A DNA stretch of 64,000 bases. Source: Candidatus Poriferihabitaceae bacterium. GTDB lineage: Bacteria; Pseudomonadota; Gammaproteobacteria; Arenicellales; Poriferihabitantaceae. The position numbers and the translations under genes are program-made. The notes under the pieces were generated by a model. That model was not told where the DNA came from and did no database searches. It saw only the letters and a list, made by a program, of their open reading frames with translations. Shown piece after piece: positions 16,384-48,403 of the stretch (position 1 is its first letter; the number at the start of each line of letters is the position of its first letter). The stretch spans positions 1,161,019 through 1,225,018 of the forward strand of contig OZ251537.1 of the NCBI GenBank assembly GCA_965243285.1, read 5' to 3'.

Positions 16384-16393
16384 CGCCCAGTCT

Positions 16394-19533: not shown

Positions 19534-19534
19534 T

Positions 19535-21730
19535 ATGTCTATAACCGAAAGCGAATCTGTTGTTGCAATTGATATTCAGTTAACCGCTTGCGGGTGGCAA
19601 TTAGACCCTCGCCAGCTTGATCGCAACGTTTTCAAACAAAGGGCGCGCACTGCCGAGCAAAATAAAGCACTCGGTGGCAAGCACCCAGACTATGTGCTTT
19701 ATGCTTATAACGAATCAAATAAACCTACGCTGGTTATTGAAGCCAAAAAACCCGGCAAATCAATGTCGGAAGCGCTGAAGCAGGGGATTAATCGATACGC
19801 TAAGAAAATTAATGCGCCTATTGTAATCGCATCAGATGGGTGGCGTGTCAAAACTTGGCATATAGGGCGTAGGGAACCGTTATTTATTGATGGCCGTGAA
19901 GTGGATGAATTGTTCAGCCCTGAGATGACAAAGGAATTTGTCAAAAATAATAATTTCAGCAGCCTCTCCGAGGATGTGGCATTAGATCAATATGCACTAA
20001 TCGCCAAATTCAAAAAAGCCAATAGCATATTAAAAACCGAGGGACTTTCCGCTGGTATAGAAAGATTCTCGGAATTTGCAAATTTGATGTTCTTAAAACT
20101 CCTAATTGAGGGGGGGGCGGATATTGCGGGATTTTCATGGGCGGATATTGAGGCTAAACAAGGTGTAACTCTGACAAATGCGATAAAAACCATGTTCAGG
20201 GAATTGCGCCGGGAATATTGCAACTTGTTTGAACAGACGAAGGTGCAAAACCCCAAAAATATGGAGCGATTAATTGAACTGCTTTCCTTCCGCCTATCCT
20301 CAGTTAAGCACGACATCAAAGGCCTTGCTTTTGAGCATTTTATACATTCATACACAAGAGGAACAAAAAATGATTTGGGGCAGTATTTCACCCCGCGTCA
20401 CATTGTCAGGATGATGGTGCATTTTTTGAGACCTCAAATCGGTGAAAAAATCTACGACCCCTTCTGTGGCACCGGGGGGATGTTGATTGAATGTTTTCGA
20501 TATATTAGTCAACATATAGAAAGTGATGACGATAAGAAAATACTTAAAGAAAAGACCGTGTTCGGCCGGGACAATTCAAGCGTGGCGAGAATCGCCATGA
20601 TGAACATGATTATGTTCGGCGACGGGCATTCCAATATCACTCAAGGCAACTCGTACGCCATGCTTGGCGAAGCCAAACGCAAATACGATATTGTTATCAC
20701 CAACATTCCATTCTCACAAGAGACAGATTGTTACGAAGGTTACCCGGTGATGCCGTCTGGCGTTAAAAATGGCGACAGCATCGGGGTTCAACATAGTCTT
20801 GAAAGTTTAAAGGATACAAAATCCGCGCGAGCCGCTATCATTGTTCCCATCGGCTTTCTCTATAAGGAACAACTGGCGCAAGAGCGCAAACACATTTTTA
20901 AACACTGGACAATAGAAAGGATTGTGGAATTATCCCCAAAATGTTTCCAGCCCTATACAGAACAACAAACAGCGGCGCTGGTGATTAGCCGGAAAAAACC
21001 CATTGCCGTCTACCCCTACTACCGCGTGAAAAACGATGGATATAGCCAAGATGGATACCGCGTCGCCTTGCCCGGGGAGAACGATATAGACAAAGCAATG
21101 GATGATATTGGCGCAACAGAAAAGCCTATTGCAAACGACTATCCCTCGCCATTTAAAACCATCAATTTATTGATTCGGAAAAACGAATTCAGGCTTGGCG
21201 ACATCGCAAAGATCACAAGCGGGGCGGGGAATATATCTCCGAAAACCAAAATCATCGATGTGATTGGCGGTGTCCACTCAATTCTAATGGTTGCCGATCT
21301 CGCCAAAGCCCACATCGATTACTGCCTGGATGAAAGTATCTACAAACTAACAGAGCGCGCAGTCAGAGATAAAAAACCGTATCTATTTAAGGAAAATACG
21401 ACCATCATTCCAGTGACCGGCAAGGCATCGCTAAAAAATCACCGAGCGTTATTGGGGGCTCCCGCATACGCCACCAGCACCCTTGCCGGTATTGAGGTGG
21501 ATGAAAACAGCATGCATCCTTTCTGCATTTTTAATTTCTTTCTCAACTTTGATATTGAACGAGTGACTTATGACTTGGGCTACCCTGGCATAAGTGTCCG
21601 CATGCTTATGGAAATTGGCATCACCAATTACACTGACAAACAAACGAAAGACATCATCCATCGCGTGGGTTATGTCGTACAATTAAGCAAGGAATTAAAA
21701 ATCAAACGCAGAGAAATAGAATTAGGTTAA
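19535..21730 (+). CDS. Single-chain restriction-modification-specificity enzyme (Type IIG-like: PD-ExK nuclease + HsdM-like N6A methylase + HsdS-like TRD)
   Basis: N-terminal HPDYVLY...LVIEAKK (D..ExK). Middle GQYFTPRHIV, DPFCGTGGML (motif I) and ITNIPFS (NPPF variant). C-terminal FRLGDIAKITSG... TRD. Starts 1 nt after the methylase stop. AT-rich. Confidence 0.8.
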   Translation: MSITESESVVAIDIQLTACGWQLDPRQLDRNVFKQRARTAEQNKALGGKHPDYVLYAYNESNKPTLVIEAKKPGKSMSEALKQGINRYAKKINAPIVIASDGWRVKTWHIGRREPLFIDGREVDELFSPEMTKEFVKNNNFSSLSEDVALDQYALIAKFKKANSILKTEGLSAGIERFSEFANLMFLKLLIEGGADIAGFSWADIEAKQGVTLTNAIKTMFRELRREYCNLFEQTKVQNPKNMERLIELLSFRLSSVKHDIKGLAFEHFIHSYTRGTKNDLGQYFTPRHIVRMMVHFLRPQIGEKIYDPFCGTGGMLIECFRYISQHIESDDDKKILKEKTVFGRDNSSVARIAMMNMIMFGDGHSNITQGNSYAMLGEAKRKYDIVITNIPFSQETDCYEGYPVMPSGVKNGDSIGVQHSLESLKDTKSARAAIIVPIGFLYKEQLAQERKHIFKHWTIERIVELSPKCFQPYTEQQTAALVISRKKPIAVYPYYRVKNDGYSQDGYRVALPGENDIDKAMDDIGATEKPIANDYPSPFKTINLLIRKNEFRLGDIAKITSGAGNISPKTKIIDVIGGVHSILMVADLAKAHIDYCLDESIYKLTERAVRDKKPYLFKENTTIIPVTGKASLKNHRALLGAPAYATSTLAGIEVDENSMHPFCIFNFFLNFDIERVTYDLGYPGISVRMLMEIGITNYTDKQTKDIIHRVGYVVQLSKELKIKRREIELG

Positions 21731-28273: not shown

Positions 28274-28765
28274 ATGTACATAGACTTCAAACAACTCTAC
28301 AAAACCTTCACCCTCAAGGAATTGCGGCGCGGCATGTGGCTCACCGGGCGGCGGCTATTCAGCCGCAAAATCACCCTCATGTACCCACTGGAAAAAACGC
28401 CGAAATCGCCGCGCTTCCGCGGCCTGCACGCCTTGCGCCGCTACGCCAACGGCGAGGAACGCTGCATCGCGTGCAAATTGTGCGAGGCGGTCTGCCCGGC
28501 GCTCGCCATCACCATCGACTCCGAAGAACGCGCCGACGGCACGCGCCGCACCACGCGCTACGACATCGACTTGTTCAAGTGTGTGTATTGCGGTTTCTGC
28601 GAGGAAGCCTGCCCGGTGGATGCCATCGTCATGACCGACATCCACGAATTCCACATGGATGAAAATCATCAACGCATCATCGACAAATCGCGCCTGCTCG
28701 CCATCGGCGATAAATACGAACCGCAAATCGCCGCGGCGCGCCAGCAAGACGCGCCTTATCGCTGA
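28274..28765 (+). CDS. nuoI: NADH-quinone oxidoreductase subunit I
   Basis: Two 4Fe-4S motifs: [12 protein letters not shown] and [12 protein letters not shown]. Confidence 0.95.
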
Positions 28766-29784
28766 TGGCGATCGCCACGGCCGCCTGCGCGTCGCGCCCG
28801 ACTCAAAGCAAAGCGAGAGCGCCGCGCAACCGCACCTTGCATTGCGACGCAGCGGAGGCCGCAGCACTCGGCGCGCGCCTCACTACGCTGACGGCGCCGG
28901 TCGGCAGCCATGCCATCGACGCCATCGACGGCAAAATTATTCATCAAGATATTTTCGCCGCGGCGCAGTATTTGCCGGCCGCGTTCGTCGATTTGTTGAT
29001 TATCGACCCGCCGTATAACTTAACCAAAAATTACCACGGGCAACGGTTTTTGGAGAAAGAAAAACCCGAGTATGCCGCGTGGTTCGAAAGCATGCTGCGC
29101 TCGGTGATGCACACCCTAAAGCCCAACGCGTCGTTGTATGTGTGCGCCGATTGGCGAACATCCATTATCATCGCGCCGCTGCTGGAAAAATATTTCCAAG
29201 TAAAAAATCGCATCACCTGGGAACGCGAAAAAGGCCGCGGCGCCAAACTCAACTGGAAAAATAATTTAGAAGACATTTGGTTTTGCGTAACCGGCAACGC
29301 GTATTTTTTCAATGTGGATGCGGTTAAACTCAAAAGAAAAGTGCTGGCTCCTTATCGCCACAACGGCTTGCCCAAAGATTGGCGCATCGAGCGCGATGGC
29401 AACTATCGCTTGACCCATCCGTCCAATATTTGGACCGACATCTCCATTCCGTTCTGGTCGATGCCGGAAAACACCGACCACCCAACGCAAAAGCCGGAGA
29501 AATTGTTAGCTAAATTAATCTTAGCCAGCAGCCGGCCGGGAGATATGGTGTTCGACCCCTTCGCCGGCAGCGGCAGCACCGCCGTGACCGCGAAAAAATT
29601 ACGCCGCCGCTTTGTGTGCGTGGAACTCAACCGCGAATATTGCTGCTGGGGACAGAAGCGTTTGCAACAAACCTCGCCGGATGACCCCATACAAGGCTAC
29701 GCCAATAATGTGTTTTTGGAGAGGAACACGGCGCACAACCTCAAACATAAAAGCGCCGCATCCACGCAAAAAAAATTGTTATGA
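28765..29784 (+). CDS. Beta-class (N6A/N4C) DNA methyltransferase, cassette 2
   Basis: IIDPPYN, HPTQKP, DPFAGSGST. The only in-frame ATG shares its A with the nuoI TGA (TGATG). Confidence 0.85.
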   Translation: MAIATAACASRPTQSKARAPRNRTLHCDAAEAAALGARLTTLTAPVGSHAIDAIDGKIIHQDIFAAAQYLPAAFVDLLIIDPPYNLTKNYHGQRFLEKEKPEYAAWFESMLRSVMHTLKPNASLYVCADWRTSIIIAPLLEKYFQVKNRITWEREKGRGAKLNWKNNLEDIWFCVTGNAYFFNVDAVKLKRKVLAPYRHNGLPKDWRIERDGNYRLTHPSNIWTDISIPFWSMPENTDHPTQKPEKLLAKLILASSRPGDMVFDPFAGSGSTAVTAKKLRRRFVCVELNREYCCWGQKRLQQTSPDDPIQGYANNVFLERNTAHNLKHKSAASTQKKLL

Positions 29785-30449
29785 AATCCTCTTTTTTCTA
29801 CGGCGCTCGCAGCGCCGAAGCCGCGGCAAAAATACAGGCCGCCAGCAACACTGAACCAACTTTTCTTTCCGCCATAACTGCCCACAGCCCGCGCGCGGTG
29901 GGCGATGCTACGCAATCGCTGGTGGAGAAAAAATTTGAGTCCATCATCGGCGATTGGTGTGCTGAATATTCATCATCATTCGCGCGCCGAGCAATGGCCG
30001 ATTTGGGTTTGAGGATAAGCCAAGATTTTTATTGCATAGTTGATGTGAAAACCCATCGACTTGACACTACATTCAACATGCCTGCGCTCGTTTCGGTCAA
30101 GCGATTAGCGCGTTTTTATGAAGATGACATGAATGTATTTTCTATTCTCATGATCAAGTACGAAATAATTGATAACCGCATGCAAGTTAATGAAGTTATT
30201 TTTCTGCCTATAGAGTTTTTGGATTGGAGTTGTCTCACAGTAGGGGCGCTTGGGTGGGGGCAAATACAAATCGCCAATTCCAACAACATTGTTATTCGTC
30301 ACGGTCAATCTAGAAAAACCTGGATGCTTTCTTTGTGTGATGTATTGCAAGAATTTTACCCAAAAGAAATTTTGAAAATCACCGAGCGAGTAAATGAATT
30401 CAACAAAGTTAAATCGTATTGGCATAACAAGCCCGACCTTTGGACTTGA
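29781..30449 (+). CDS. Putative Type II restriction endonuclease, cassette 2
   Basis: ATGA overlap with the methylase stop. Possible PD-(D/E)xK core (...ADL...CIVDVKTH...). AT-rich. No other recognisable family. Confidence 0.55.
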   Translation: MKSSFFYGARSAEAAAKIQAASNTEPTFLSAITAHSPRAVGDATQSLVEKKFESIIGDWCAEYSSSFARRAMADLGLRISQDFYCIVDVKTHRLDTTFNMPALVSVKRLARFYEDDMNVFSILMIKYEIIDNRMQVNEVIFLPIEFLDWSCLTVGALGWGQIQIANSNNIVIRHGQSRKTWMLSLCDVLQEFYPKEILKITERVNEFNKVKSYWHNKPDLWT

Positions 30450-30461
30450 TGCGCAAATCAC

Positions 30462-30932
30462 ATGCGCGCTTGCAATCCCCGCCCACCACAAACCACCAAA
30501 GCCATGTCAACCTCCCCCACCTCCCCCACCCAATATCTTATTCGCGCTGATGGCGATTCCATCGTGAGTTATTTGTATTATGTGACCGACCCCTACCATG
30601 AGCATGATATTGAGTACTGCTGGGGCACGCATCACACCTATGGGTTTTTATACGCCAGCGAAGCCGAAGCGGCGGCCGATTTAGCCGGCCTGCCGCAACA
30701 CGCGCACCCGAAAGTGATTACCTATGAGCAAGCGGCGGCCGAACACATCGGCGAGGCAGCTAATTTTCCATTCAACATAAAATCCATGCTCACTGACGAA
30801 GAACATGCCGAACGCGTGCGTCGCGATATCAGCGGCGAACCCGACCCCGAGGATGAAGATTATGACTATGACGGGGATTTTGAAGAACCCTATGAGGAAG
30901 ACCTCACCCGCCAGAAAAGTTTTTTGGATTAA
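30462..30932 (+). CDS. Hypothetical protein with strongly acidic C-terminus
   Basis: The tail ...GEPDPEDEDYDYDGDFEEPYEEDL... follows the R gene. The start could also be MSTSPTSP at 30504. Confidence 0.45.
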   Translation: MRACNPRPPQTTKAMSTSPTSPTQYLIRADGDSIVSYLYYVTDPYHEHDIEYCWGTHHTYGFLYASEAEAAADLAGLPQHAHPKVITYEQAAAEHIGEAANFPFNIKSMLTDEEHAERVRRDISGEPDPEDEDYDYDGDFEEPYEEDLTRQKSFLD

Positions 30933-31820: not shown

Positions 31821-32126
31821 ATGATTCCTCTGTCTTATTATCTCGCCCTCGGCGCGGCGCTGTTCGCCATCAGCGTGGTGGGGATTTTTCTCAACCGCAA
31901 AAATGTGGTCATCTTATTGATGTCGCTGGAGTTGCTGCTGTTAGCGGTGAATATGAATTTCGTCGCCTTCTCGCATTTTTTAGCCGACCCGGCCGGGCAA
32001 ATATTTGTGTTTTTTATCCTAACCGTGGCCGCCGCCGAAGCCGCCATCGGCCTCGCCATCCTCATCGTGCTATTCCGCAGCCGCCGCACCATCAATGTGG
32101 AAGAACTCGATTCGCTTAAAGGGTAA
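31821..32126 (+). CDS. nuoK: NADH-quinone oxidoreductase subunit K
   Basis: ...[18 protein letters not shown]...[23 protein letters not shown]... Confidence 0.95.
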
Positions 32127-32128
32127 TG
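32089..32128 (+). repeat. Direct repeat copy 1 (nuoK 3' end, att-like)
   Basis: CCATCAATGTGGAAGAACTCGATTCG is identical (26/26) to 37293-37318. The similarity continues through the stop codon with 2 mismatches and a 1-nt indel. Confidence 0.9.
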
Positions 32129-32136
32129 GAGTGGTC

Positions 32137-33465
32137 GTGAAACCGCCTGTGAAGTCGCCCCTAAAATCGCCTGTGGCATTGCCTATGGTGGCGACAAACA
32201 CGCCGCGCATCGTCAAGTTTTCCGGCGGGCGTTCTTCCGGTATGATGTTGATGGAATTGTTGCAAGGCGGGAAACTCGAGCCGAAGCGTGGCGATGTCAT
32301 CGTGTTTAACAACACTTCTGCGGAACACCCCGCCACCTATGAGTTCACCCGCCGCATGAAATCATTAGCCGAGGAAAAATATAACATTCCATTTTTTTGG
32401 GTCGAATATCAAACCTATGAAGACGCCGGCAAGCACGGCTGGCAGCGCTTGCCGAGCTATCGGTTGGTGAACCATACGCCGTATAGCAAAAAAAATATTC
32501 ATGGCTATCGCCGCAAAGGCGAAGTGTTTGAGGAATTAATTTCCGCGTCCGGTTATCTGCCGAACATGCAACGCCGCACCTGCACCCACGCATTAAAAAT
32601 CTTCATCACCAATTCATTTTTGGCGGATTGGCTGGCGCAAAAAAGCGGCATCGAGCGCATGGGCCATTTTGGAGACGCATCCAGACTCACCGATGCAACA
32701 CTTATCGAAGCGCATCAAAAAAATGGCGGTGGCGTGCCGCCAAATATACTAATCAAGAAACGGCAATTCGCCCGTGGGATGCCATTCATCCGCCCGGCGG
32801 CGATGTGGCAAGATTTCACCGCTGCGCGCTTGTGTTTTCGCAATAATGAAATCAAACACTGCGTGAGTGGCCGCAAAGGGCGGCTATTTGGCACTCGCGC
32901 TATTTCCTATGTTTCCTATCTCGGCATTCGCAAAGATGAAGAGATTCGCATGGTCAAAATACAAGATAGAATACACGCCGCCGCCACCGCCCGTGGCGGC
33001 TCTATGTTCGGCCAGCCGCCGGGTGAACAAGTGTTAGCGCCCCTGGTCGATAACAAAACAACCAAACTGCAGGTGGCAGAATACTGGCGCCGCCAACCCT
33101 TTAATTTGCGCCTGCCCGAGAGCGGCGACTTCTCCAACTGCGTATACTGCCCACTCAAGGGCAAAACCAAATTACTACAAATCGCCAAACAAGAATCAAG
33201 CGGCAAAATAAACGCCCGTGGCACCCCCGCATCTATCAACTGGTGGGTAAAAATGGAACAAAAATATAGCCGCAATTTGGTGGATGAAAAACGCACAGTC
33301 AAATCATCGAATAAAATCAAGTACATCGGGTTTTTCGGCGCCTCCCAGAAGCACGTTTACGCTGGCATCAAAAAACAAACCCAAAAGACCAACTCGCCGA
33401 CCGATGCATTAAAAGCCGAGTTTTTAGAAGATGAAAATTACATTCCATGCAACTGCACGGATTGA
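32137..33465 (+). CDS. PP-loop ATP pyrophosphatase of the PAPS-reductase/DndC-like family
   Basis: KFSGGRSSG (PP-loop SGGxxS), ...RRTCTHALKI..., YLGIRKDEEIRM, APLVD...VAEYW, and the C-terminal cysteines CVYCPLKG / CNC. Start chosen at GTG 32137 (GGAG 5 nt upstream). ATG 32185 and ATG 32095 (inside nuoK) are alternatives. Confidence 0.75.
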   Translation: MKPPVKSPLKSPVALPMVATNTPRIVKFSGGRSSGMMLMELLQGGKLEPKRGDVIVFNNTSAEHPATYEFTRRMKSLAEEKYNIPFFWVEYQTYEDAGKHGWQRLPSYRLVNHTPYSKKNIHGYRRKGEVFEELISASGYLPNMQRRTCTHALKIFITNSFLADWLAQKSGIERMGHFGDASRLTDATLIEAHQKNGGGVPPNILIKKRQFARGMPFIRPAAMWQDFTAARLCFRNNEIKHCVSGRKGRLFGTRAISYVSYLGIRKDEEIRMVKIQDRIHAAATARGGSMFGQPPGEQVLAPLVDNKTTKLQVAEYWRRQPFNLRLPESGDFSNCVYCPLKGKTKLLQIAKQESSGKINARGTPASINWWVKMEQKYSRNLVDEKRTVKSSNKIKYIGFFGASQKHVYAGIKKQTQKTNSPTDALKAEFLEDENYIPCNCTD

Positions 33466-33513
33466 TTTTTATCCTGATCACCCCACCCAACGACCCACAT
33501 CACAACTTAAATC

Positions 33514-35397
33514 ATGTCAGTACTATATTTTAGATTAGGCCCAATGGACGGTTTCACTGCTATGGATTCTGCCGATAAAAAAGGGGGGTTTGCCACCCCG
33601 ATTCGCGAGTTGTTGCAAAACAGTATAGACGCCGTCCGTGAAACCGGTGAAAAGTCATGCAAAATCAACATCTATCTTGAAAATATTGCCACAGATAGAA
33701 TTCCCCACCTAGATGAGTACAAAAAAGTACTGCAACAAGCCATAACAACAGCGAAAAACCGTAGCGAAACTAATGACGATGGAAGTTTTAACGCCAGTAC
33801 GGCGCAACAAGTGGAGGCCATAAAAGGTGCGCTGGCTAACAAAGAACAACCCATGTTGCTTTTTTCCGATAACGGCGTCGGTATGCCGCCCAACCGCCTA
33901 AACGCCATGTTTTTACGTGGCGTGAGCATCAAGCGCGATGAAGGGTCGGTCGGCTCTAGGGGTGTTGGGCATTTATCAAGCTATGCACTATCTGCGTTGC
34001 GTTATGTTTTATATGCCACCAAATATATAGACAACGGCCGTACACAAACGCTGTTCACGGGTTCGCCGATTTTGGCTGGCCATAAAGATGAATTTGGCTT
34101 CGACCGAGGTAAGCAAGGGTGCATCCTCCGTAATAAACCTGAAGAAGAAAAGTCACCTGAATTTAACTACCCTGCCACCACCCCGTCTGGCATGGAATTT
34201 ATCGCCGACAAAATACAGTCGTTAGACCACGGTACTTTGGTATGCATATTGGGGCTAAATAATGCGTGGGATGAAGATGCCGAATACGTCATCGTCAGCA
34301 ACTATTTCCATGCCATCAAGTACGCCGGCTTAGATGTGACTATCCATAAAGATCACGACAGTAAAACCATATCTTGCACCGATATCGATAAATTGGTGGC
34401 GGGCCGTAAAGATCAACCCAACAAGCAAGGAGATGCAATATTGTCTGGCAAAGCCGTACATCAAGCTTGGCTGGCAGTTAAGGAAGACAAAAACCGTCAC
34501 GAAATTATCTTAGATGACCACAATAAGGTAGACGTTTTCATAAAAACAGACTCCGATGCGGACACCACCATTGTTTTGGTCCGCAGTGGCATGGTTGTCG
34601 CTCGCCATGATTGCATGTTGTCAAATCACATGATGCAATTACGAAACAATACTAAATTCGAGCCGTTCACTGCGGTTATCAATGTTACCGTCCATGATGC
34701 GAAACCGTTGTTTGAGTTGGTAAAAGGATCTGAAAGCGCCTATCACAATAAACTGGAAGCATCCGAGATTAGCAAAGTCAAGAAAAATGAATTAAGAGGT
34801 TTGCTGAAAGATCTCAGCGAGAAAATTAAACTACATTTAGTTCCTGTTAATCGCAAATCTTTTGATTTTCCGATGTTTCGGGTACACAACCGCGAGCAGG
34901 CGCACACCACCGGCACCGGTAGTGGTGCGGGGCAAAGCATCATTGCCACGCCCACTCGTCGACCGCGTGACCCTCGACATGGTCAGCGCACCAAACAAAA
35001 AACTTCAGGGCGTCTGGTGCCGACTATCCCGAACCGCAATTTATCAGTTAAAGCCGCTTCTCGATATACTGACATCGGCGATAAATGGATTGTTCGTTTG
35101 AATGTCACGATGCCCGCCGACAAAAAATCTAACGACGATGTTTATCTGTTTTTCTCATTGAACGAAGACACCGACGGTGCATCAAATCTAACCCCTTTGT
35201 CTCTTGGGAAAGTCACAGTGAATAGCAAAGACATGGGGAAAATCGCCCCAGCAACGCCCCTTGAACTAACTGGTTTGCATGCAGGCCAACTCACCGAAAT
35301 CGAAGCTGAAGTGATGAAGCCCGCAGGCATTGGCAATATGAAAACCGCCCTGATGTCAACTTTTCGCTTAAAAAAACGCGAACTCAAAAAGGTGTGA
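33514..35397 (+). CDS. GHKL (Bergerat-fold, MORC/Hsp90/MutL-like) ATPase with large uncharacterised C-terminal region
   Basis: N box IRELLQNSIDA, G1 box FSDNGVGM, G2 box GSVGSRGVGHLS. Confidence 0.75.
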   Translation: MSVLYFRLGPMDGFTAMDSADKKGGFATPIRELLQNSIDAVRETGEKSCKINIYLENIATDRIPHLDEYKKVLQQAITTAKNRSETNDDGSFNASTAQQVEAIKGALANKEQPMLLFSDNGVGMPPNRLNAMFLRGVSIKRDEGSVGSRGVGHLSSYALSALRYVLYATKYIDNGRTQTLFTGSPILAGHKDEFGFDRGKQGCILRNKPEEEKSPEFNYPATTPSGMEFIADKIQSLDHGTLVCILGLNNAWDEDAEYVIVSNYFHAIKYAGLDVTIHKDHDSKTISCTDIDKLVAGRKDQPNKQGDAILSGKAVHQAWLAVKEDKNRHEIILDDHNKVDVFIKTDSDADTTIVLVRSGMVVARHDCMLSNHMMQLRNNTKFEPFTAVINVTVHDAKPLFELVKGSESAYHNKLEASEISKVKKNELRGLLKDLSEKIKLHLVPVNRKSFDFPMFRVHNREQAHTTGTGSGAGQSIIATPTRRPRDPRHGQRTKQKTSGRLVPTIPNRNLSVKAASRYTDIGDKWIVRLNVTMPADKKSNDDVYLFFSLNEDTDGASNLTPLSLGKVTVNSKDMGKIAPATPLELTGLHAGQLTEIEAEVMKPAGIGNMKTALMSTFRLKKRELKKV

Positions 35398-35401
35398 GAC
35401 C

Positions 35402-36286
35402 ATGTCCGAGAAACTAATTTTAGATTTCCCCGTCCTGAATATCGACAGCGGCGATTTTAATGAATGTGTAAATTATAAAGTCACCGCCGTGCGAGACGAT
35501 AAAAATATTAACATAACGCACACGTTAAGCGGCGCATCTTTCATACAAAATTTGGTAAAAGATAAGCGCGCAGTTTTTTCGGTTCTATTGGTTTATCAAA
35601 ATAGCTCAGAGCGGCAGATATGTCTATGCAAAAATTTTGAACTCGCCGGCGATTCGATAATCGCCATCCAAACCATACCGTTGAAATTTTCCTATGCGCC
35701 GAAAATAAAGCCGAGCATCGTGCTAAAGGAGTCACAAACTATCGTAGTAGACTACGCTGCGGGCTTGACCGGTTTTTGGCAACATGGTGAGCGTTTTGAT
35801 GTTCCCGCATTGGCGCGCCTCGCTGTCGGCGAGGTGTTGCAATTTTCGGACGGCGGCTTATCGTCATTAATGAGGATCGAACTCGATACAAACTTGTCCG
35901 AAGGCGAAATGAAAACTATCGTTTATGAGCAAGCCGGCGAAGGCGACATACCGGTGACTTTGCTCTGCGGGGAAGGCGTGTTTTCGCATCTACAATCAGT
36001 CACAGGAAAAAAACCACCCACCAACCCCGTCGAAGCCGCACGCTCCGCCATCATTACCCAAGCACTATGCGCAGTGTATGCCTACATGTACAAACTATCC
36101 GCCAAAGAACAAAAATCATCCACCGAGGAAAAATCGGGCGGCGTGTTAAATGCTCACTTGGATAGCATGATTGAAAAAAATCCGTCTTTGAATTGGAATA
36201 ATGAAAATTTTGACCCGAGTTGGGCGGCCACCGTGATGAATCCTTATGCGGTGCGTGCTATCGCCATGGAGATGAACAATGATTGA
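35402..36286 (+). CDS. Hypothetical protein (cassette gene 3, no recognisable motif)
   Basis: Starts 4 nt after the GHKL gene stop. 294 aa. Codon usage resembles its neighbours. Confidence 0.6.
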   Translation: MSEKLILDFPVLNIDSGDFNECVNYKVTAVRDDKNINITHTLSGASFIQNLVKDKRAVFSVLLVYQNSSERQICLCKNFELAGDSIIAIQTIPLKFSYAPKIKPSIVLKESQTIVVDYAAGLTGFWQHGERFDVPALARLAVGEVLQFSDGGLSSLMRIELDTNLSEGEMKTIVYEQAGEGDIPVTLLCGEGVFSHLQSVTGKKPPTNPVEAARSAIITQALCAVYAYMYKLSAKEQKSSTEEKSGGVLNAHLDSMIEKNPSLNWNNENFDPSWAATVMNPYAVRAIAMEMNND

Positions 36287-37268
36287 GTATCAAAAATTTG
36301 ACGAGGCGAAGTGGTTGGCTTTTGGCAAAAGGTTATTACCCACTGTCGCCAAACTAAACTTATCCAGTGAGCAAGTAGAGTTTTTGGAGGCATGTCGAGA
36401 TGGTCAAGCGGCTTTTTTGGATTATTTGGACACCCATTTTCTCTATGAAAAAGGGGCTGTCGTTGGCCAAAAAGTTGTGCCTTTTCGGTACAAATTCAGT
36501 GAAAATGAATTTTTCCTGATCAGCACCAAAGATACCCAAAAAATTATCTGGGATGGCTTCAAGGCGGTGGATGAGGAAACCAAATTTTCATGCGGATTTT
36601 GGGGCTATATCATCGTAGAAATGCTGAAAAACGGTGCCATCGAAAAACCCAGCGATTTAGCATCCACCAAAAACATGACTGGGCATGCGCACATAGATGA
36701 TGCACTCGCCGGCACCCCGAAAAATGTAGACGACTGCGTTAGAAGAATTTTACGCTCCATGTGCAATTCGAAAGCAAGGGGGCATCGAATTATTTTCTAT
36801 GATTTTCCTTTGGGGAGAACTTATTGGCGATGGCATTGGGCGCATAAGATGGCTGGGTATGAAATGCCCGTGGATGAGTTATCTGCGCATGGACTGTCCA
36901 TACATGATAAGAGCGCTGATATTAACTTAGATTTTGCACAAGTGTTGGCGGCATTGGATATGTCTAATTATCGAGTATTTGCTGAAAAAATGCATACCGG
37001 AAGAAGTTTTATCAGCGCCCCGAACATCCTCGGTGGGCTGTTACTATTTTTGGCGCATTCTGATAAGTCGAATAAGGTTAACAACATCGGCATCATCATC
37101 GACCGATTGGCTTATTTGAGTTCATGGAAGGCTATCGAGTTGCAATCGCCGGCCGATAATCAACTCGAGATAGAAGCCATCGCCGACAACCTCGCCGCCC
37201 ATCCGCCCACCAAACAGCCCATCAAACCCGCCACCGAACAATCCGCCGCCGGCTCCACCCGACCCTAG
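36279..37268 (+). CDS. Hypothetical protein (cassette gene 4, no recognisable motif)
   Basis: 8-nt overlap with gene 3 (ATGATTGA). 329 aa. Pro/Ala-rich tail. Confidence 0.6.
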   Translation: MIEYQKFDEAKWLAFGKRLLPTVAKLNLSSEQVEFLEACRDGQAAFLDYLDTHFLYEKGAVVGQKVVPFRYKFSENEFFLISTKDTQKIIWDGFKAVDEETKFSCGFWGYIIVEMLKNGAIEKPSDLASTKNMTGHAHIDDALAGTPKNVDDCVRRILRSMCNSKARGHRIIFYDFPLGRTYWRWHWAHKMAGYEMPVDELSAHGLSIHDKSADINLDFAQVLAALDMSNYRVFAEKMHTGRSFISAPNILGGLLLFLAHSDKSNKVNNIGIIIDRLAYLSSWKAIELQSPADNQLEIEAIADNLAAHPPTKQPIKPATEQSAAGSTRP

Positions 37269-37292
37269 CCTCGTCGCCCTATTCCCAGCCGC

Positions 37293-37331
37293 CCATCAAT
37301 GTGGAAGAACTCGATTCGTTGAAGGGTGATG
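37293..37331 (+). repeat. Direct repeat copy 2 (displaced nuoK 3' end)
   Basis: Encodes ..INVEELDS.. as nuoK does. A 1-nt deletion puts the homologous stop (TGA versus TAA) out of frame. Confidence 0.9.
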
Positions 37332-37350
37332 TTGATTTTCTCTCCGCTCC

Positions 37351-37419
37351 GCTTTCGCTTTTCGCTGCTACGCTTCACCCTCCCCGCTTAACCTGGATAA
37401 ATTAAGTCAAAACTGACTT
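37351..37419 (+). repeat. Decayed copy of the class II two-hairpin module
   Basis: cgcttttcgctgctacgcttcaccctccccgctta...aagtcaaaactgactt aligns with 47853-47910 of copy C (cgcttttcgctgttacgctttactccccccgcttta...gagtcaaaactggcgg). Confidence 0.55.
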
Positions 37420-37714
37420 ATTCCGACCAGCGCGCTTAAACCTCGCATGGATTTCCCTAAATCCTTAGTCCATCACCCCAAAACAAACCCCCCATAAATC
37501 CCCCATAAACCCACGCAAACACGCCATTCCACCTAAAATTCCCCTCAATCACCCAAAATTTCCCTCCCAACCCTCATAAAAGTGCATAATCCGCCGCCGC
37601 AAACTCCCGAGCCACCACGGACGCCGCCAGCGGCAAATTCGGCTGGGTGATAATGATGTATCAAAACACCCGCAACGAAAAAGGGCCAGAATCATCCCCG
37701 CTGATGATGTCTAT

Positions 37715-37773
37715 TGTCAATTAATCGACATCTTTATCGCCGTCCGTTGACAAGCAAACGGGGAGTGTATAAT
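37715..37773 (+). promoter_or_regulatory. Sigma70-like promoter with upstream near-palindrome for R-M cassette 3
   Basis: TTGACA (37747-37752) and TATAAT (37768-37773) with a 15-nt spacer, 37 nt before ATG 37811. The near-palindrome TGTCAATT/AATCGACA at 37715-37730 shares the TTGACA half-site. Confidence 0.45.
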
Positions 37774-37810
37774 ATTAAAACTTCGCCTAAACAAACAACC
37801 AATTCCCACA

Positions 37811-38776
37811 ATGAACAATCCCGACTTAAACGAGTCAAGTGCTGAAGACTCCAGCAACCACGTTCCAGCGAAACACAGTTTTGCGGTGCGTAGCGGCAAA
37901 AAAGTGTATGAAGGATTCAACGCAGAACGCAAGGTTCGCAACCGCAAAGCGAAAGAGCAAAAGCGTTTGGGCTATGAGGCGTTTAGCAAAGATTTTCCGA
38001 ATGAAAATCATCCACTGCCGCAAAAATTCACCGACAAAATTATCACCGGCGATAGTGCGCAAGTATTAAAAAAACTGCCCGCCAATTGCATTGACTTAGT
38101 GATGACTTCGCCGCCGTATAATTTCGGCTTAGACTATAGCGAACATGTTGACACCGATACTTGGCATGCTTATTTTGATAAACTTTTCTTGGTATTTGCT
38201 GAGTGCATTCGTGTCGTAAAACATGGCGGGCGAATCATCGTTAATGTCTCGCCACTATTTTCAGATTACATTCCCACGCATCATTTTGTTAGCAAGTTTT
38301 TTATTGATCAAGGGTTGATTTGGAAAGGTGAAATTTTGTGGGAAAAAAATAACTACAACTGTAAATACACCGCTTGGGGCAGTTGGAAAAGCCCGTCCAG
38401 CCCATACCTTAAATACACATGGGAATTCTTAGAAATTTTTTGCAAGGGTGATTTAAAGAAACCCGGCGAGCGTGCCAACATCGACATTACCGATGATGAG
38501 TTTAAAAAGTGGGTGAATGCCAAATGGTCGATTGCCCCCGAACACAAAATGAAAAAATACGGTCACCCGGCCATGTTTCCAGAGAAATTGGTGATGCAAG
38601 CGTTGAAATTGTTTAGTTTTCAAGGCGACATTGTGCTGGACCCTTTCAATGGAGCAGGCACAACGACTTCGGTTGCGCATCAATTCCAACGGAAATATCT
38701 TGGCATCGATACATCATCTGAGTATTGCAAAATCGCTGAAAACAGAATTATCGATAACGGAGGAATTTTTAAATGA
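37811..38776 (+). CDS. Beta-class DNA methyltransferase (SPPY motif; N4-cytosine or N6-adenine), cassette 3
   Basis: MTSPPYN, HPAMFPEKL, DPFNGAGTT. Long basic N-terminal extension. Confidence 0.85.
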   Translation: MNNPDLNESSAEDSSNHVPAKHSFAVRSGKKVYEGFNAERKVRNRKAKEQKRLGYEAFSKDFPNENHPLPQKFTDKIITGDSAQVLKKLPANCIDLVMTSPPYNFGLDYSEHVDTDTWHAYFDKLFLVFAECIRVVKHGGRIIVNVSPLFSDYIPTHHFVSKFFIDQGLIWKGEILWEKNNYNCKYTAWGSWKSPSSPYLKYTWEFLEIFCKGDLKKPGERANIDITDDEFKKWVNAKWSIAPEHKMKKYGHPAMFPEKLVMQALKLFSFQGDIVLDPFNGAGTTTSVAHQFQRKYLGIDTSSEYCKIAENRIIDNGGIFK

Positions 38777-39477
38777 ACACAGAACAAGAATTGCGCGAAA
38801 TTATCGGCGAATACAACACCGTTGTTAAAGTCGTTGATAAGGATGCCAAAGAAAGCGAAGACCATGCGTACGGCGGTTTTGTTCGTGAGGTAAAAGGAAA
38901 ACTACAGGAGCACATCACCGAATCGCTTATTATGGCTGCGTGGAATTCTGTAGGTGGCGACCCAGAGGTGTTAGAAATTAACAGCAAAAAAATATCCATC
39001 CCTATTAAGGAAGAATACCTTGACCGAATCGAAGATGACGAAGTTAAGAAGCATATCGCCCAAAATATAGATAACTATATTTACAAATTATCAGTTGATA
39101 AGCATGTTTTTGTCAACGGTGAATTTGTCATTGGCATTGAATGCAAGGCATTTACGGAAAACGCCATGATCAAAAGAATTTTGCTCGATTTTGATTTGCT
39201 AAAAACCCAGTATCCGAATTTATTATGCTATTTATTTCAATTAGAAAGTCAACTTGGCGGCGATTACAGAAAATTAACTAAACCAATTTTTGGCAGTCAC
39301 TCAACGCGAACTTTGCAATCATATTTTTCATGCGACTTAACTATTGTTACGCTGCTTGAAGGCGAGAGAGATATTGAACGGGCAATTCATAAGCCTGGGT
39401 GTTTTAAGGAATTGAACCTAGAGGTATTGCAAGATACAGTACATATTCTCGCCAAAGACATGCGGCAATTTTCGTAA
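38773..39477 (+). CDS. Putative Type II restriction endonuclease, cassette 3
   Basis: ATGA overlap with the methylase stop. Candidate PD-ExK core (SVDKHVF...VIGIECKA). AT-rich. Confidence 0.6.
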   Translation: MNTEQELREIIGEYNTVVKVVDKDAKESEDHAYGGFVREVKGKLQEHITESLIMAAWNSVGGDPEVLEINSKKISIPIKEEYLDRIEDDEVKKHIAQNIDNYIYKLSVDKHVFVNGEFVIGIECKAFTENAMIKRILLDFDLLKTQYPNLLCYLFQLESQLGGDYRKLTKPIFGSHSTRTLQSYFSCDLTIVTLLEGERDIERAIHKPGCFKELNLEVLQDTVHILAKDMRQFS

Positions 39478-39627
39478 GGATTATGCTTAAAGTATATCCA
39501 CCCAATGCAAATCAAGCAGTCACTGCATCCATCCGTTGCAAAACCGGCGATAAAGCCCCGTGCAGTAAAATGCACCGGGTGGAGTCATTAATACACCAAC
39601 GGAAAGTGCTCATTTTCGGTCACCACC

Positions 39628-39661
39628 GCCCCGCCTCGTCCATTCGGGCGGGGCTTTTTTT
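39628..39661 (+). terminator. Rho-independent terminator just upstream of nuoL
   Basis: GCCCCGCC-loop-GGCGGGGC followed by T7, 36 nt before the nuoL ATG. Confidence 0.75.
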
Positions 39662-39697
39662 GCTTAAAATCCCCCCCCAAACCTCCACCCCATCCCC

Positions 39698-41659
39698 ATG
39701 AAAACCATCTACCTCGCCATCCCCCTCATCTGCCTAGTCTCTTCCATACTCATCGGACTGTTTGGGCGGCGGATGGGGCGTGTTGGGGCGCATTCTATCG
39801 CCATCGCCGGGGTGGCGGCGGCGTTTGTGTTATCGCTGGTGGTGTATGTGGATGTGCGCGCTGGCAATTATTTCAATGATGTGATTTATACCTGGGCGGT
39901 GAGCGACAATGTGCCGCTGAATATCGGTTTTTTGATCGACCAACTCAGCGCCATGATGATGGTGGTGGTCACTTTCGTGTCGTTGATGGTGCACATCTAC
40001 ACCATCGGCTATATGGCTGGCGACCCCGGCTATCAGCGTTTTTTTTGCTACATCTCGCTGTTTACTTTCGCCATGTTGATGTTGGTGATGGCGAACAATT
40101 TTATGCAGTTGTTTTTCGGCTGGGAGGCGGTGGGTTTAATTTCATACCTATTAATTGGTTTTTGGTATGAACGCGACAGCGCTATTTTTGCCAACCTCAA
40201 AGCATTTTTAGTCAACCGCGTGGGTGATTTTGGCTTCCTGCTCGGCATCGCCGCGGTCATGGCATTATTCGGCTCGCTGGATTACGCCGCGGTGTTCGCC
40301 GGCGCCGACGGCATGCGCGAGCAGACCGTCGCCACCCCGTTCGGCGAGTGGAAGTGGATCACCATCATCTGCCTATTGTTATTCGTCGGCGCCATGGGCA
40401 AATCGGCGCAAGCGCCGTTGCATGTATGGCTGCCGGATTCCATGGAGGGACCCACCCCCATCTCGGCGCTGATTCACGCCGCCACCATGGTCACCGCCGG
40501 CATCTATATGGTGGCGCGTATGTCGCCGTTGTTCGAGTTATCGGAGACGGCTTTATCGGCGGTGCTCATCATCGGCGCCACTACCGCCATGCTCATGGGG
40601 TTGGTGGGCTTAGTGCAAAACGACATCAAGCGCGTGGTGGCGTATTCCACCTTATCGCAGTTGGGCTATATGACCGTGGCGTTAGGCGCATCGGCCTATC
40701 AGGTGGCGATTTTTCATCTCGGCACGCACGCCTTTTTCAAGGCGTTGCTGTTCCTCGCCGCCGGCTCGGTCATCATCGCCATGCATCATGAGCAAGACAT
40801 GCGAAAAATGGGCGGGCTTAAATCGCTGATGCCGGTCACTTATATAACCGCCGCCGTCGGCTCCTTGGCGCTGGCCGGCATCCCCCCCTTCGCCGGCTTT
40901 TTCTCCAAAGACGCCATCATCGAAGCCACCCGCCACAGCGCCATCTGGGGCGCCGGTTATGCCTATGTCATGGTGCTACTCGGCGTATTCGTCACCGCCT
41001 TATATGCATTTCGATTATTGTTTATGACCTTCCACGGCAAAAATCGCTCGGCGCCGCACATCCGCCGCCAGTTGCGCGAACCACCGGGCGTGGTCACCTG
41101 GCCGCTGGTGGCGCTGGCCATCCCCTCGCTGTTGGTCGGCGGAATGTTTTTCGAAGCCGTTATCGATGGCAGTTTTTTCGGCGATGCAATTCGCGTCGCC
41201 CCGCAGCATGATGTGATGGCGCAACTCGCCGCCGTAAACCCAGACAAACATGGCATAGCGTTGATCTTCGCCACCTTACTGCACAGCGTATTAGCGCCGC
41301 CGCTGTGGTTGGCGGCCGCTGGCATCGGCTGCGCCTGGTATGGCTATTGCAAGAGTCCGGCCTGGCCGGGGCGCGTAAAAACCGCCTCCGGGCCACTCTA
41401 TCACCTGCTGAAAAACAAGTATGGATTCGACGCCCTGTACCAAGTGCTATTCGCGCGCGGCTCGGTGGCGCTCGGGCACTTTTTATCGGCGCGTATCGAT
41501 GGCGGCATGGTGGATGGCTTCATCGTAAACGGCACGGCGCGCGCGGTGGGGCTATGCGCCGGCGCCATGCGCACCATCCAAACCGGTCTCACCTATCACT
41601 ACGCATTCGTGATGATCGTTGGCCTGTTTTGTATGATCACCTATTTCGTGTGGTGGTAG
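39698..41659 (+). CDS. nuoL: NADH-quinone oxidoreductase subunit L
   Basis: ...FFGWEAVGLISYLLIGFW...GKSAQAPLHVWLPDSMEGPTPISALIHAATMVTAG... Confidence 0.95.
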   Translation: MKTIYLAIPLICLVSSILIGLFGRRMGRVGAHSIAIAGVAAAFVLSLVVYVDVRAGNYFNDVIYTWAVSDNVPLNIGFLIDQLSAMMMVVVTFVSLMVHIYTIGYMAGDPGYQRFFCYISLFTFAMLMLVMANNFMQLFFGWEAVGLISYLLIGFWYERDSAIFANLKAFLVNRVGDFGFLLGIAAVMALFGSLDYAAVFAGADGMREQTVATPFGEWKWITIICLLLFVGAMGKSAQAPLHVWLPDSMEGPTPISALIHAATMVTAGIYMVARMSPLFELSETALSAVLIIGATTAMLMGLVGLVQNDIKRVVAYSTLSQLGYMTVALGASAYQVAIFHLGTHAFFKALLFLAAGSVIIAMHHEQDMRKMGGLKSLMPVTYITAAVGSLALAGIPPFAGFFSKDAIIEATRHSAIWGAGYAYVMVLLGVFVTALYAFRLLFMTFHGKNRSAPHIRRQLREPPGVVTWPLVALAIPSLLVGGMFFEAVIDGSFFGDAIRVAPQHDVMAQLAAVNPDKHGIALIFATLLHSVLAPPLWLAAAGIGCAWYGYCKSPAWPGRVKTASGPLYHLLKNKYGFDALYQVLFARGSVALGHFLSARIDGGMVDGFIVNGTARAVGLCAGAMRTIQTGLTYHYAFVMIVGLFCMITYFVWW

Positions 41660-46578: not shown

Positions 46579-46939
46579 ATGAGTGATGAATTTGGGGGGC
46601 CATGGACTGTTCAGAAGTTAAATATTCTGGAAAAATATTTTAGATAGAGTGTTCGGCAACACTGAATGGAATCATTTTTATGAAAATATTTCGCAGCAAA
46701 ATTTATTTGGATGTTCTGGGAAAAAACGCCCCTCCGGATCTAAACAAATTGTCGACTTGTACAAAATAAACTTGGAAAAACTTTTTGGACGAAGGTTTAT
46801 GAAAAATTCAAAAAATGCTCCTTTGTTTGAGTTTATTTTTTGCGTAGGCAGTCCAAGTGATGCTGCTATAAGACTTGCCAAAGATATCGCTACACGCACC
46901 ATCATAAACTCAACCGAGCATCTCATCGATGGCAAATAA
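46579..46939 (+). pseudogene. Degraded three-Cys-motif partner protein (TcmP-like) gene
   Basis: GAGGA-N8-ATG gives MSDEFGGPWTVQKLNILEKYFR and then a stop. A +1-shifted frame continues to ...LFEFIFCVGSPSDAAIRLAKDI.... About 120 codons remain in total, and the end overlaps the DUF5131 start as in intact pairs. The family assignment is from memory. Confidence 0.4.
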
Positions 46940-47744
46940 CTCAACCATCGAATGGACTGACCACACCTTCAATCCATGGTGGGGGTGCGTTAAGGTTTCC
47001 CATGCGTGTAAACATTGTTATGCGCAAACTTTCGACCATCGGTTGGGCGGTGCGCATTGGGGAGCGCGGTCACCGCGGCGGTTTTTTGGCGAGCAACATT
47101 GGGGCGCGCCGTTGCGGTGGCAGATTCAAGCGCAGCGCCAGGGGGTGCGAAAAAAAGTATTTTGCGCCTCCATGGCGGATGTGTTCGAGCGCCGCGGGGA
47201 TTTAAATCCGCATCGCGAGCGCTTGTGGGGATTGATCGAGCAAACGCCGGATTTGGATTGGCTGCTGCTCACCAAACGCCCGCAAAATATTGGCACCTAT
47301 GCGCCGTGGAAAACACGCTGGCCGCGCAATGTGTGGTTAGGCACCACAGTGGAAAATCAAAAATGGGCTAATCAGCGCATCCCGTTGCTACTCAAATTCC
47401 CCGCCACCATCCGCTTTTTATCTTGCGAGCCGCTGTTGGGGGCGGTGGATTTAAGTCCGTGGATAGCCGACCTCGGCTGGGTTATCGCCGGCGGTGAATC
47501 CGGCCACCAGGCGCGCCCGACAAATCCGCTTTGGCTGAAATCATTGGCTACGCTGTGCCAAACCACCGCCACGCCCTTTCATTTTAAGCAGTGGGGGCAT
47601 TGGGCGCCGGCGGCAACGGCGCGCCTCGCCGGCCGAAAAAACCCGCGCCGCCACGACACCGGCGCCGAAACCTTGTTAGCGGTGGGCAAAGCCGCCGCCG
47701 GCCGGGAATTAGACGGCCGATATTGGGACCAAGCACCCGCATAG
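46929..47744 (+). CDS. DUF5131 / phage Gp37-Gp68 family protein
   Basis: MANNSTIEWTDHTFNPWWGCVKVSHACKHCYA... three-Cys N-terminus, plus ...FLSCEPLLG..DL...WVIAGGESG.... Confidence 0.8.
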   Translation: MANNSTIEWTDHTFNPWWGCVKVSHACKHCYAQTFDHRLGGAHWGARSPRRFFGEQHWGAPLRWQIQAQRQGVRKKVFCASMADVFERRGDLNPHRERLWGLIEQTPDLDWLLLTKRPQNIGTYAPWKTRWPRNVWLGTTVENQKWANQRIPLLLKFPATIRFLSCEPLLGAVDLSPWIADLGWVIAGGESGHQARPTNPLWLKSLATLCQTTATPFHFKQWGHWAPAATARLAGRKNPRRHDTGAETLLAVGKAAAGRELDGRYWDQAPA

Positions 47745-47793
47745 GCGCCCACCGCCAGCGTGCTCGATTGTATAAATCGCGAGCGGTTTATTT

Positions 47794-48209: not shown

Positions 48210-48403
48210 ATAAAAACCACCGCAACATCCGCCGCTTAATACATCGCCAAATCTATCGCATGATGAGCGCTGAATTTGCCCGATGATGCATACTTTTAGA
48301 TCTAACCATGCGTAAACAAAGGCAACACCCCGGCGCGCAATCCGTCGCGTTTATGCACTAAACATCCATCACCCGCACCGCTTCCGCCCATCACCCCCAC
48401 ACT

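Follow-up and report, generated by a model that had tools for sequence, protein, structure and literature searches.

We analyzed a 64,000-nt stretch of DNA from Candidatus Poriferihabitaceae bacterium (contig OZ251537.1; the whole stretch is referred to as the window), in which a cassette of four co-directional open reading frames (ORFs), g1-g2-g3-g4, spans positions 32185-37268 at the junction between nuoK and nuoL. The cassette encodes a PP-loop enzyme (g1), a GHKL ATPase (g2), and two proteins of no known family (g3 and g4; Table 1). The ORF coordinates gave spacings of 48 nt (g1/g2) and 4 nt (g2/g3) and an 8-nt overlap (g3/g4), exactly as stated in a first-pass annotation of the same DNA, which had proposed a candidate DNA-modification or defense system at this site. 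The comparative evidence supports that proposal, and the cassette is most likely a modification-based self/non-self system in which a sulfur writer of the Dnd/Ssp type would be combined with a different, uncharacterised scanning apparatus.

The cassette is AT-richer than its surroundings, as noted in the first pass, with a GC content of 0.471 compared with 0.573-0.578 in the flanking nuo genes. A repeat search detected a 34-nt direct repeat whose two copies are 91% identical, one lying in the 3' end of the functional nuoK gene and the other in a relic nuoK end, which still codes for 11 residues and then a stop. The insert end proposed earlier, 37292, is one base before the right copy. Since the repeat brackets exactly four genes, the cassette is a discrete insert, separate from the methylase and Type II restriction enzyme genes that had been recognised downstream and that fall outside the right repeat. 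With its low GC content, flanking repeats and neighboring restriction-modification genes, the cassette behaves like a mobile defense island.

The ORF of g1 opens at 32095, inside nuoK, and its ATG at 32185 lies 58 nt past the nuoK stop. This ATG is the probable start of g1, because the homologues begin a few residues before the PP-loop. The PP-loop motif of g1 is SGGRSSG, and residues K11, F12, S13, G14, G15 and S18 were at least 93% conserved among 77 family members, as were an FNNTSAEH motif, C133, R249/D251/E252, C319xxC322, K325 and the C-terminal C422xC424. The later motifs of the PAPS-reductase type (LGIRKDEE, APLVD...YW and SNCVYCPLKGK) were invariant or nearly so in the homologues. Five cysteines are conserved, including those of the CxxC and CxC motifs. 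Like DndC, g1 probably has an Fe-S cluster, a persulfide-carrying site, or both.

The search of the protein database returned 1227 homologues of g1, and no relative was found among the PDB sequences, also when the family profile was used. The assignment of g1 to the PAPS-reductase family in the first-pass annotation agrees with the SGGRSSG motif and the later motifs; at the profile level it depends on a match to PHROG 424 'PAPS reductase' (1e-28) and on weak SspD and BrxP matches, PF01507 having given no match at E <= 0.01. The sole matches of g1 to defense models were SspD (1.3e-5), weak and confined to short partial stretches, and BrxP (5e-4), likewise weak and over 67 residues. Annotated phage and plasmid PAPS-reductase genes were approximately 30% identical to g1 by tblastn. 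The possibility that g1 is a housekeeping CysH or a tRNA-thiolation enzyme was rejected on account of the missing NCBIfam and Pfam matches and the tight synteny with g2-g4 across phyla; the nearest profiles were those of phage PAPS-reductase-like proteins, SspD and BrxP. In some loci g1 appeared to carry N-terminal fusions (ORFs of up to 910 aa), in which no domain was recognisable and which are probably ORF-calling artefacts of GC-rich genomes.

In g2, all three Bergerat boxes named in the first pass (E32xxxN36xxD39, D119-N-G-x-G123 and G147xxGxG152-H) were invariant in 61 diverse homologues. Beyond the ATPase domain, R357, E407xxxH411 and D554 were also invariant (61-63 diverse homologues), and a basic low-complexity linker at approximately residues 470-520 precedes a C-terminal domain. 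The g2 family profile matched Hsp90, MORC3, Topo VI-B and MutL chains in the PDB. The match of g2 itself to Pfam HATPase_c_3 was weak (2e-4) and under the curated cutoff, and PADLOC PDC-M33A was matched over part of the profile (3.4e-18). The relatives of g2 numbered 657 cluster representatives at E <= 1e-3. Judged by its intact motifs, g2 is a real GHKL ATPase. An ExxxH motif located after the GHKL domain, in the S5 region, has been given as the signature of paraMORC2 (PMC2292703), and E407xxxH411 of g2 matches it, which makes g2 a candidate paraMORC2 by this motif.

Neither g3 nor g4 matched any entry in Pfam, NCBIfam, PADLOC or the PDB, in agreement with the first-pass annotation, in which neither was recognised, and their homologues (57 for g3 and 96 for g4) were all unnamed. 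The AlphaFold model of g3 (pLDDT 84) consists of an N-terminal beta-sandwich and a C-terminal helical bundle, for which Foldseek returned only generic Ig/CBM-like sandwiches from the PDB, and the model of g4 (pLDDT 89, pTM 0.86) had no neighbor in the PDB or BFVD at E <= 0.001. The invariant residues of g4 are rich in Arg and Trp (RRILRSM, YWRWxW); in the wide g3/g4 family there are few such residues, mostly Arg, Trp, His and Tyr. The links of g4 to PADLOC PDC-M33C and to Pfam DUF6339 were weak only. g3 always adjoins g4 and is sometimes fused to it, as in two independent fusions with both halves full-length, one of 607 aa in locus L048 and one of 560 aa in L036 (18286-19968). The L036 fusion stands after a DUF262 gene. 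Homology between g3 and g4 was considered and rejected, since their merging in single-linkage clusters resulted from true g3-g4 fusion proteins and hhalign showed no similarity between the two.

To place the cassette in a wider context, one genome per species was scanned for g1 (185,579 species), which gave 154 relatives, and 80 of the loci were fetched. In approximately 70 of these 80 loci, from different species, g2, g3 and g4 were found in the same operon as g1, and most of the remaining loci had contig ends nearby. Three gene orders were observed. A close clade (>50% identity) has g1-g2-g3-g4 and a more distant one g1-X-g2-g3-g4, whereas Campylobacterales and some Gammaproteobacteria have g2-g3-g4-g1. 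A metagenome search seeded with g2 recovered g1 in seven of seven closer loci (L089-L095). Because the genes co-occur in this way, because their order varies while the set stays, and because the g2-seeded search agrees, the four genes form, as far as comparative evidence goes, one functional unit. They are real genes and not chance ORFs, in view of their 57 to more than 1200 homologues each, E values down to 1e-200 and conserved synteny, and in the window none of the four ORFs is disrupted and no invariant residue has been lost. Locus L048 contains one g1 and three g2-g3-g4 triplets. In L087 there are two copies of g1, one full g2-g3-g4 set, and a second set that continues up to the edge of the fetched sequence. 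When the window was compared with L088, a locus from a related organism, g1 was 73% identical and g2-g4 51-58% identical, compared with 80-90% for the flanking nuo proteins.

The carriers were almost all metagenome-assembled genomes of marine and symbiont origin, many of them assembled from long reads. Among them are Nitrospirales, Gamma- and Alphaproteobacteria, Longimicrobiales, Campylobacterales, 'Entotheonella', and sponge- and mussel-associated lineages. No relatives of g2 were found in IMG/VR, and PLSDB and INPHARED contained only distant PAPS-reductase genes (approximately 30% identity to g1); a phage or plasmid origin of the cassette was rejected on these grounds. In L002, genes for Mrr, Eco57I-type and BsuBI/PstI restriction proteins are located a few kb upstream of the cassette (123-3550).

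A number of the relatives carry further genes. In the more distant clade, a cysteine desulfurase was present in 23 loci, either between g1 and g2 or just after g4, and matched Pfam Aminotran_5 (1e-74 to 1e-85) and the PADLOC DndA/SspA models (1e-141 to 1e-147). In 20 loci, a DUF262/GmrSD_N protein of approximately 560-610 aa is encoded within the operon or immediately behind it, and in L001 and L018 a 410-aa DUF262+HNH protein is encoded directly 3' of g4; about one-quarter of the loci have a separate DUF262 or HNH protein. Six loci have a DndB-family gene (PF14072, 1e-26) next to the cassette. No cysteine desulfurase, DndB or DUF262 protein was found in the 64-kb window. Desulfurase, DndB and DUF262 proteins are the accessory set of the Dnd and Ssp systems, and the fact that relatives supply desulfurase, DndB and DUF262/HNH strengthens the reading that the cassette puts sulfur on DNA.

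Other neighbors were also seen. A recurrent pair directly 3' of g4, composed of a protein of approximately 500 aa with no Pfam match and one of approximately 650-690 aa with a Sigma70_r4-type helix-turn-helix, was observed in L055 (16177-19822), L070 (16122-19701) and L086 (16136-19700), and also in L060, L084 and L092; this pair may give the system a different effector or a regulator. In L017 (Nitrospina; 14930-18104) g4 is followed by a cysteine desulfurase and then a 617-aa radical SAM protein, and in L026 (15276-18563) by a 1095-aa protein containing a PLD nuclease and an SNF2 helicase.

The most remote g2 relatives, from metagenomes (L096-L101), had a g3-like gene downstream and no PP-loop gene. 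Directly upstream of the remote g2, a C5 cytosine DNA methylase (PF00145, 1e-70) was found in five of five loci, and where the contig continues, the third gene encodes DUF6339 and is followed by a Vsr endonuclease gene. The result is a five-gene operon of C5 methylase, GHKL ATPase, PDC-M33B-like protein, DUF6339 and Vsr, for example in L100 (4261-9214). The PADLOC PDC-M33 models matched proteins of relatives, with values of up to 6e-43 for g2 against PDC-M33A and, in the distant clade, 6e-6 to 3e-12 for g3 against PDC-M33B and weak matches for g4 against PDC-M33C, and PDC-M33 therefore appears to be a PP-loop-free three-gene relative of the cassette. The g3 and g4 proteins of the window showed no match to PDC-M33B and PDC-M33C even at E <= 10. 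The operon of C5 methylase, GHKL ATPase, DUF6339 and Vsr is probably PDC-M33 in its natural context; our search for literature on PDC-M33 or DUF6339 found no paper. The GHKL-g3 pair is thus seen, from gene content, with two alternative enzymes, one of them certainly DNA-modifying, and the strongest argument that g1 would also modify DNA is that this pair is coupled to a C5 methylase elsewhere.

The reading that we favor, and to which we give about an even chance, is that g1 writes a sulfur mark on DNA and g2-g4 target it, the four genes being a self-contained, horizontally acquired module that marks host DNA. The gene content, motifs, synteny, fusions, accessory genes and mobility were described above as observed; what follows on the chemistry, the DNA substrate, the division of labor and the defense role is conditional. 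g1, probably Fe-S-bearing like DndC and SspD, would adenylate an oxygen of DNA and replace it with sulfur, and its target would most likely be a non-bridging phosphate oxygen, giving a phosphorothioate. The sulfur donor would be the housekeeping IscS where no desulfurase is encoded alongside, as in the clade of the window; some dnd clusters likewise have no dndA. g2 would act as a dimerising GHKL/paraMORC clamp, driven by ATP and working on DNA with the g3-g4 pair. Together, g2-g4 would bind the DNA, select the positions to be marked and recruit g1 there, standing in for DndD-DndE or SspB-SspC. Restriction in the relatives would probably come from the extra in-operon DUF262 or DUF262-HNH protein, and the cassette of the window, having no dedicated nuclease, would be modification-only or act through the GHKL complex itself.

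The case for sulfur chemistry draws on the in-operon desulfurase together with the five conserved g1 cysteines. As to the targeting role, g2-g4 look like a specificity module served by one catalytic subunit. This is suggested by L048, where a single g1 serves three triplets, by the g3-g4 fusions of L048 and L036, by the comparison of the window with L088, in which the lower identity of g2-g4 than of g1 is the pattern expected of specificity subunits, and by the lack of a conserved nuclease motif in g3/g4 together with the separate DUF262/HNH proteins of many relatives.

Several observations weigh against this reading. First, the support for a function of the cassette is comparative throughout. 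Second, g1 gave no match to Pfam and NCBIfam as a whole at the threshold used for PF01507, nor to the DndC models of PADLOC and NCBIfam; since it misses the curated models and its SspD and BrxP matches are weak and partial, its chemistry could differ. Third, no cysteine desulfurase was found in the close clade, and in the loci that have one, the enzyme could serve only for building Fe-S clusters. Fourth, the family alignment contained no conserved nickase or nuclease signature in g3 or g4, and the profile comparison did not establish homology between g4 and DUF6339 (PF19866). Fifth, in approximately five informative loci g1 occurs with no g2-g4 nearby; the neighbors there are housekeeping genes (tRNA synthetase, topoisomerase, UvrB and LptD), and alternative partners for these lone copies were rejected for that reason. 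Finally, a C5 methylase has its own target recognition, so that the GHKL genes beside it need not provide targeting, which favors a reader or effector role.

The last point leads to the explanation that competes best with ours and that we nevertheless consider unlikely, namely that g1 alone writes a protective mark and g2-g3-g4 are a reader and effector that blocks or cuts unmarked DNA. Cutting would then involve a nuclease site as yet unrecognised, for example E407xxxH411/D554 of g2, or the effector would be nuclease-free, as in BREX. The operon of methylase, GHKL ATPase, M33B-like protein, DUF6339 and Vsr resembles a restriction-modification system in which the GHKL genes occupy the place of the restriction component and the methylase can do without a partner for targeting. 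In PADLOC, the triplet lacking the PP-loop gene is listed as a defense candidate of its own. The invariant E, H and D residues of g2 outside the ATPase fold, and the occurrence of the four-gene cassette as a stand-alone mobile unit in the clade of the window, are also consistent with such a role. Furthermore, it has been proposed that paraMORC ATPases link the recognition and cleavage steps of restriction-modification systems (PMC2292703), and paraMORC3/Shedu is a validated GHKL-controlled nuclease (PMC12137116). Against this, a g1 with a specificity of its own would hardly account for L048 with its one g1 and three triplets, no conserved nuclease motif is seen in g3 or g4, and the separate DUF262/HNH proteins fit restriction from outside g2-g4. 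In addition, no PP-loop enzyme of the DndC/SspD kind is known to select DNA sites alone.

It is also conceivable, and in our estimation quite improbable, that the cassette modifies nucleic acid with a product other than phosphorothioate, that is, a thiolated DNA base, a non-sulfur nucleophile or an RNA substrate. PP-loop enzymes share a common activation chemistry, adenylation of an oxygen, and use many nucleophiles, and TtcA and TtuA are Fe-S PP-loop enzymes that thiolate tRNA. That g1 is a distinct family, failing the DndC models and matching SspD and BrxP only weakly, and that a dedicated sulfur donor is missing from the close clade, to which the window belongs, would agree with such a product. 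However, the nearest profiles of g1 (PHROG 424, SspD and BrxP) belong to the PAPS-reductase clan and not to the TilS/TtcA clan, the desulfurase, DndB and DUF262 neighbors are the accessory set of Dnd/Ssp loci, and the DNA cytosine methylase that takes the place of g1 in relatives points to a DNA substrate. We give equally little credence to a combined version, in which g1 would produce a non-phosphorothioate mark (a thiolated base or a differently substituted phosphate) and GHKL-g3-g4 would be a nuclease-free, ATP-driven reader excluding unmarked DNA, a mechanism apart from restriction-modification, Dnd/Ssp and BREX.

Finally, it is very unlikely that the cassette is not immune in function (an epigenetic or stress-protective marking system, a selfish addiction module in symbionts, or an inactive copy in the window): many dnd clusters have no restriction partner and other roles of phosphorothioation have been proposed (PMC10853773 and PMC5471199), a nuclease is missing from the window cassette, the family members so far come almost all from marine or symbiont metagenome-assembled genomes, and the cassette sits within a housekeeping operon whose transcript it probably shares, but the intact ORFs and preserved invariant residues make decay unlikely, restriction-modification genes surround the cassette in the window and in L002, g2-g4 diverge faster than the flanking genes, as expected in conflict with invaders, and relatives have DUF262/HNH partners.

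No convincing terminator was found between nuoK and g1, and the cassette is probably co-transcribed with the nuo housekeeping operon. The 540-nt non-coding, C/A-rich spacer from the relic nuoK end to the methylase gene (37269-37810) has a GC skew of about -0.24. Within it are short repeats resembling CCCCATAAA and, at 37747-37775, a promoter-like site close to the consensus. At 39633-39654, a hairpin of 9 pairs (7 G-C) with a T-run behind it resembles a strong terminator. It lies 44 nt ahead of the nuoL start and, should it be functional, a separate promoter would be required for nuoL-N. The nuo operon is broken at three gene junctions by restriction-modification-type genes (nuo inserts 1 to 3 in Table 1), and this essential operon is a scaffold for defense genes. 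In L088, too, the nuoI/nuoJ junction contains a methylase, and its diverged cassette (51-73% identical) lies at the same nuoK/nuoL junction, where it is bracketed by a 15-nt duplication of the nuoL 5' end (6739-6753 and 11815-11829). The cassettes of the window and L088 share the junction but have different flanking duplications, which suggests repeated or site-directed insertion there; the cassette contains no integrase. Downstream of the nuo operon the window contains a second small island (46929-51958), and there are two giant ORFs, at 6252-11990 and, on the minus strand, at 52966-63909. One of the giant-ORF proteins, of 1912 aa, contains He_PIG Ig-like repeats and an autotransporter domain, and the other is 3647 aa long.

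Table 1. Features of the cassette and of the surrounding window.
Feature	Positions	Strand	Description	Evidence
g1	32185-33465	+	PP-loop ATP pyrophosphatase of the PAPS-reductase kind, 426 aa from ATG 32185	
g2	33514-35397	+	GHKL (Bergerat-fold) ATPase, paraMORC-like, 627 aa	
g3	35402-36286	+	no known family, 294 aa	
g4	36279-37268	+	no known family, all-alpha, 329 aa	
34-nt direct repeat, left copy	32089-32122		functional nuoK 3' end; left insert boundary	repeat search
34-nt direct repeat, right copy	37293-37326		relic nuoK 3' end; right insert boundary	repeat search
nuoK	31821-32126		left neighbor of the cassette	
nuoL	39698-41659		right neighbor	
Downstream restriction-modification pair	37811-39477		N6/N4 DNA methylase and Type II restriction enzyme	methylase, Pfam 1e-37; enzyme, PADLOC 1.7e-94
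nuo insert 1	18124-21730		N6/N4 methylase and 731-aa N6_Mtase/HSDR_N fusion	
nuo insert 2	28765-30932		nuoI/nuoJ junction; methylase, weakly HincII-like ORF and 156-aa ORF	
nuo insert 3	32127-39697		nuoK/nuoL junction; cassette, methylase and restriction enzyme	
DUF5131	46929-47744		second island	
Phage-type integrase	49559-50545	-	second island	
PLD nuclease + SNF2 N-terminal fragment	50936-51958	-	second island; 340 aa, apparently truncated	

If phosphorothioate is the product of the cassette, nature would have solved this task independently once more, keeping the PP-loop sulfur inserter and swapping the DNA-scanning apparatus entirely, the replacement scanner being a GHKL/paraMORC clamp with g3 and g4, two proteins of new folds. 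Since the GHKL-g3 pair sits with either a PP-loop enzyme or a C5 methylase, the idea that writers and scanners are exchangeable in defense systems is testable. Little is known of what prokaryotic paraMORC proteins, the proposed ancestors of the MORC chromatin ATPases of eukaryotes, do in the cell; the cassette would give them a biochemical role. The cassette family is invisible to current annotation and occurs mostly in marine, sponge or mussel symbiont genomes, and surveys of phosphorothioation and of defense repertoires in those communities would miss it.

Comparison with the models in PADLOC gave only the weak SspD and BrxP matches of g1 and, for g2, the unnamed PDC-M33A (3e-18), and membership of a named defense system was rejected on this basis. 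Judged by these models, the cassette is not Dnd, Ssp, BREX type 4 or another named system. The view in the first-pass annotation that the layout differs from Dnd, Ssp and BREX was borne out: the DndC models fail, and DndD/E, SspB/C and PglZ/BrxC/BrxL are absent. Its claim of novelty for the combination stood in that no named system was matched; it has to be narrowed in that paraMORC ATPases in restriction-modification contexts have been known since 2008 (PMC2292703) and a distant relative of the g2-g3 pair is contained in PDC-M33. Searches of the full-text literature, subscription-only papers aside, yielded no description of the four-gene combination.

With Dnd the cassette has a common logic, namely a PP-loop enzyme of the Fe-S type, an ATPase and small DNA-handling proteins, the desulfurase being encoded in only some of the operons, and DndB adjoins the cassette in the six relatives mentioned. 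The ATPases belong to different superfamilies, ABC in Dnd and GHKL in the cassette, and no match to DndD (an SMC-like ABC ATPase) or DndE was found in g2-g4 or the flanking genes. The genes that recur around g1 in the related loci are g2-g4 and those for the desulfurase, DUF262 proteins and DndB. A swap of the writer for a cytosine methylase, as seen in the remote relatives, has been reported for DndD-DndE cores (PMC10853773).

The Ssp and BREX type 4 systems both have a PAPS-reductase-like PP-loop catalytic core, to which the partial SspD and BrxP matches of g1 relate, and in both an ATPase and DNA-handling partners stand beside the PP-loop enzyme. The cysteine desulfurase of the relatives matches the SspA model, and their in-operon DUF262 protein recalls SspE in Ssp, although these proteins miss the SspE model. 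No SspB (DUF4007) or SspC/BrxC ATPase was present among the cassette proteins or their neighbors, which have a GHKL ATPase and g3/g4 instead, and no PglZ, BrxC or BrxL was found with the cassette. In the TdpABC system of thermophiles, the PP-loop protein TdpC writes phosphorothioate via an adenylated DNA intermediate, and a separate ATPase-containing complex reads it. Its partners, TdpA and TdpB, are probably different from the GHKL ATPase and g3/g4. In reviews and surveys published up to 2026, phosphorothioation is ascribed to the dnd and ssp families (PMC12914056, PMC12839542 and PMC10853773). BREX type 4 is counted among these families in the literature searched, and Tdp is cited too.

The closest precedents for g2 are the GHKL paraMORC/MORC ATPases in restriction-modification operons, which were described by comparative genomics by Iyer, Abhiman and Aravind in 2008 (PMC2292703), and paraMORC3, or GHKL-Shedu, which has been shown to defend against phage (PMC12137116). 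In the systems of the 2008 study, too, a GHKL ATPase whose motifs are intact is part of a mobile operon resembling restriction-modification, and the cytosine methylase and Vsr context of our distant relatives is the context described there; that article mentions no PP-loop/PAPS-reductase partner and no link to sulfur or phosphorothioation, and the cassette differs further in having no helicase or recognised nuclease. PDC-M33 shares g2 (PDC-M33A), the g3 of the relatives (PDC-M33B) and, weakly, the g4 of the relatives (PDC-M33C). It is an unnamed prediction with no PP-loop component, in the place of which the PP-loop-free relatives, probably of the PDC-M33 type, carry the C5 methylase and Vsr.

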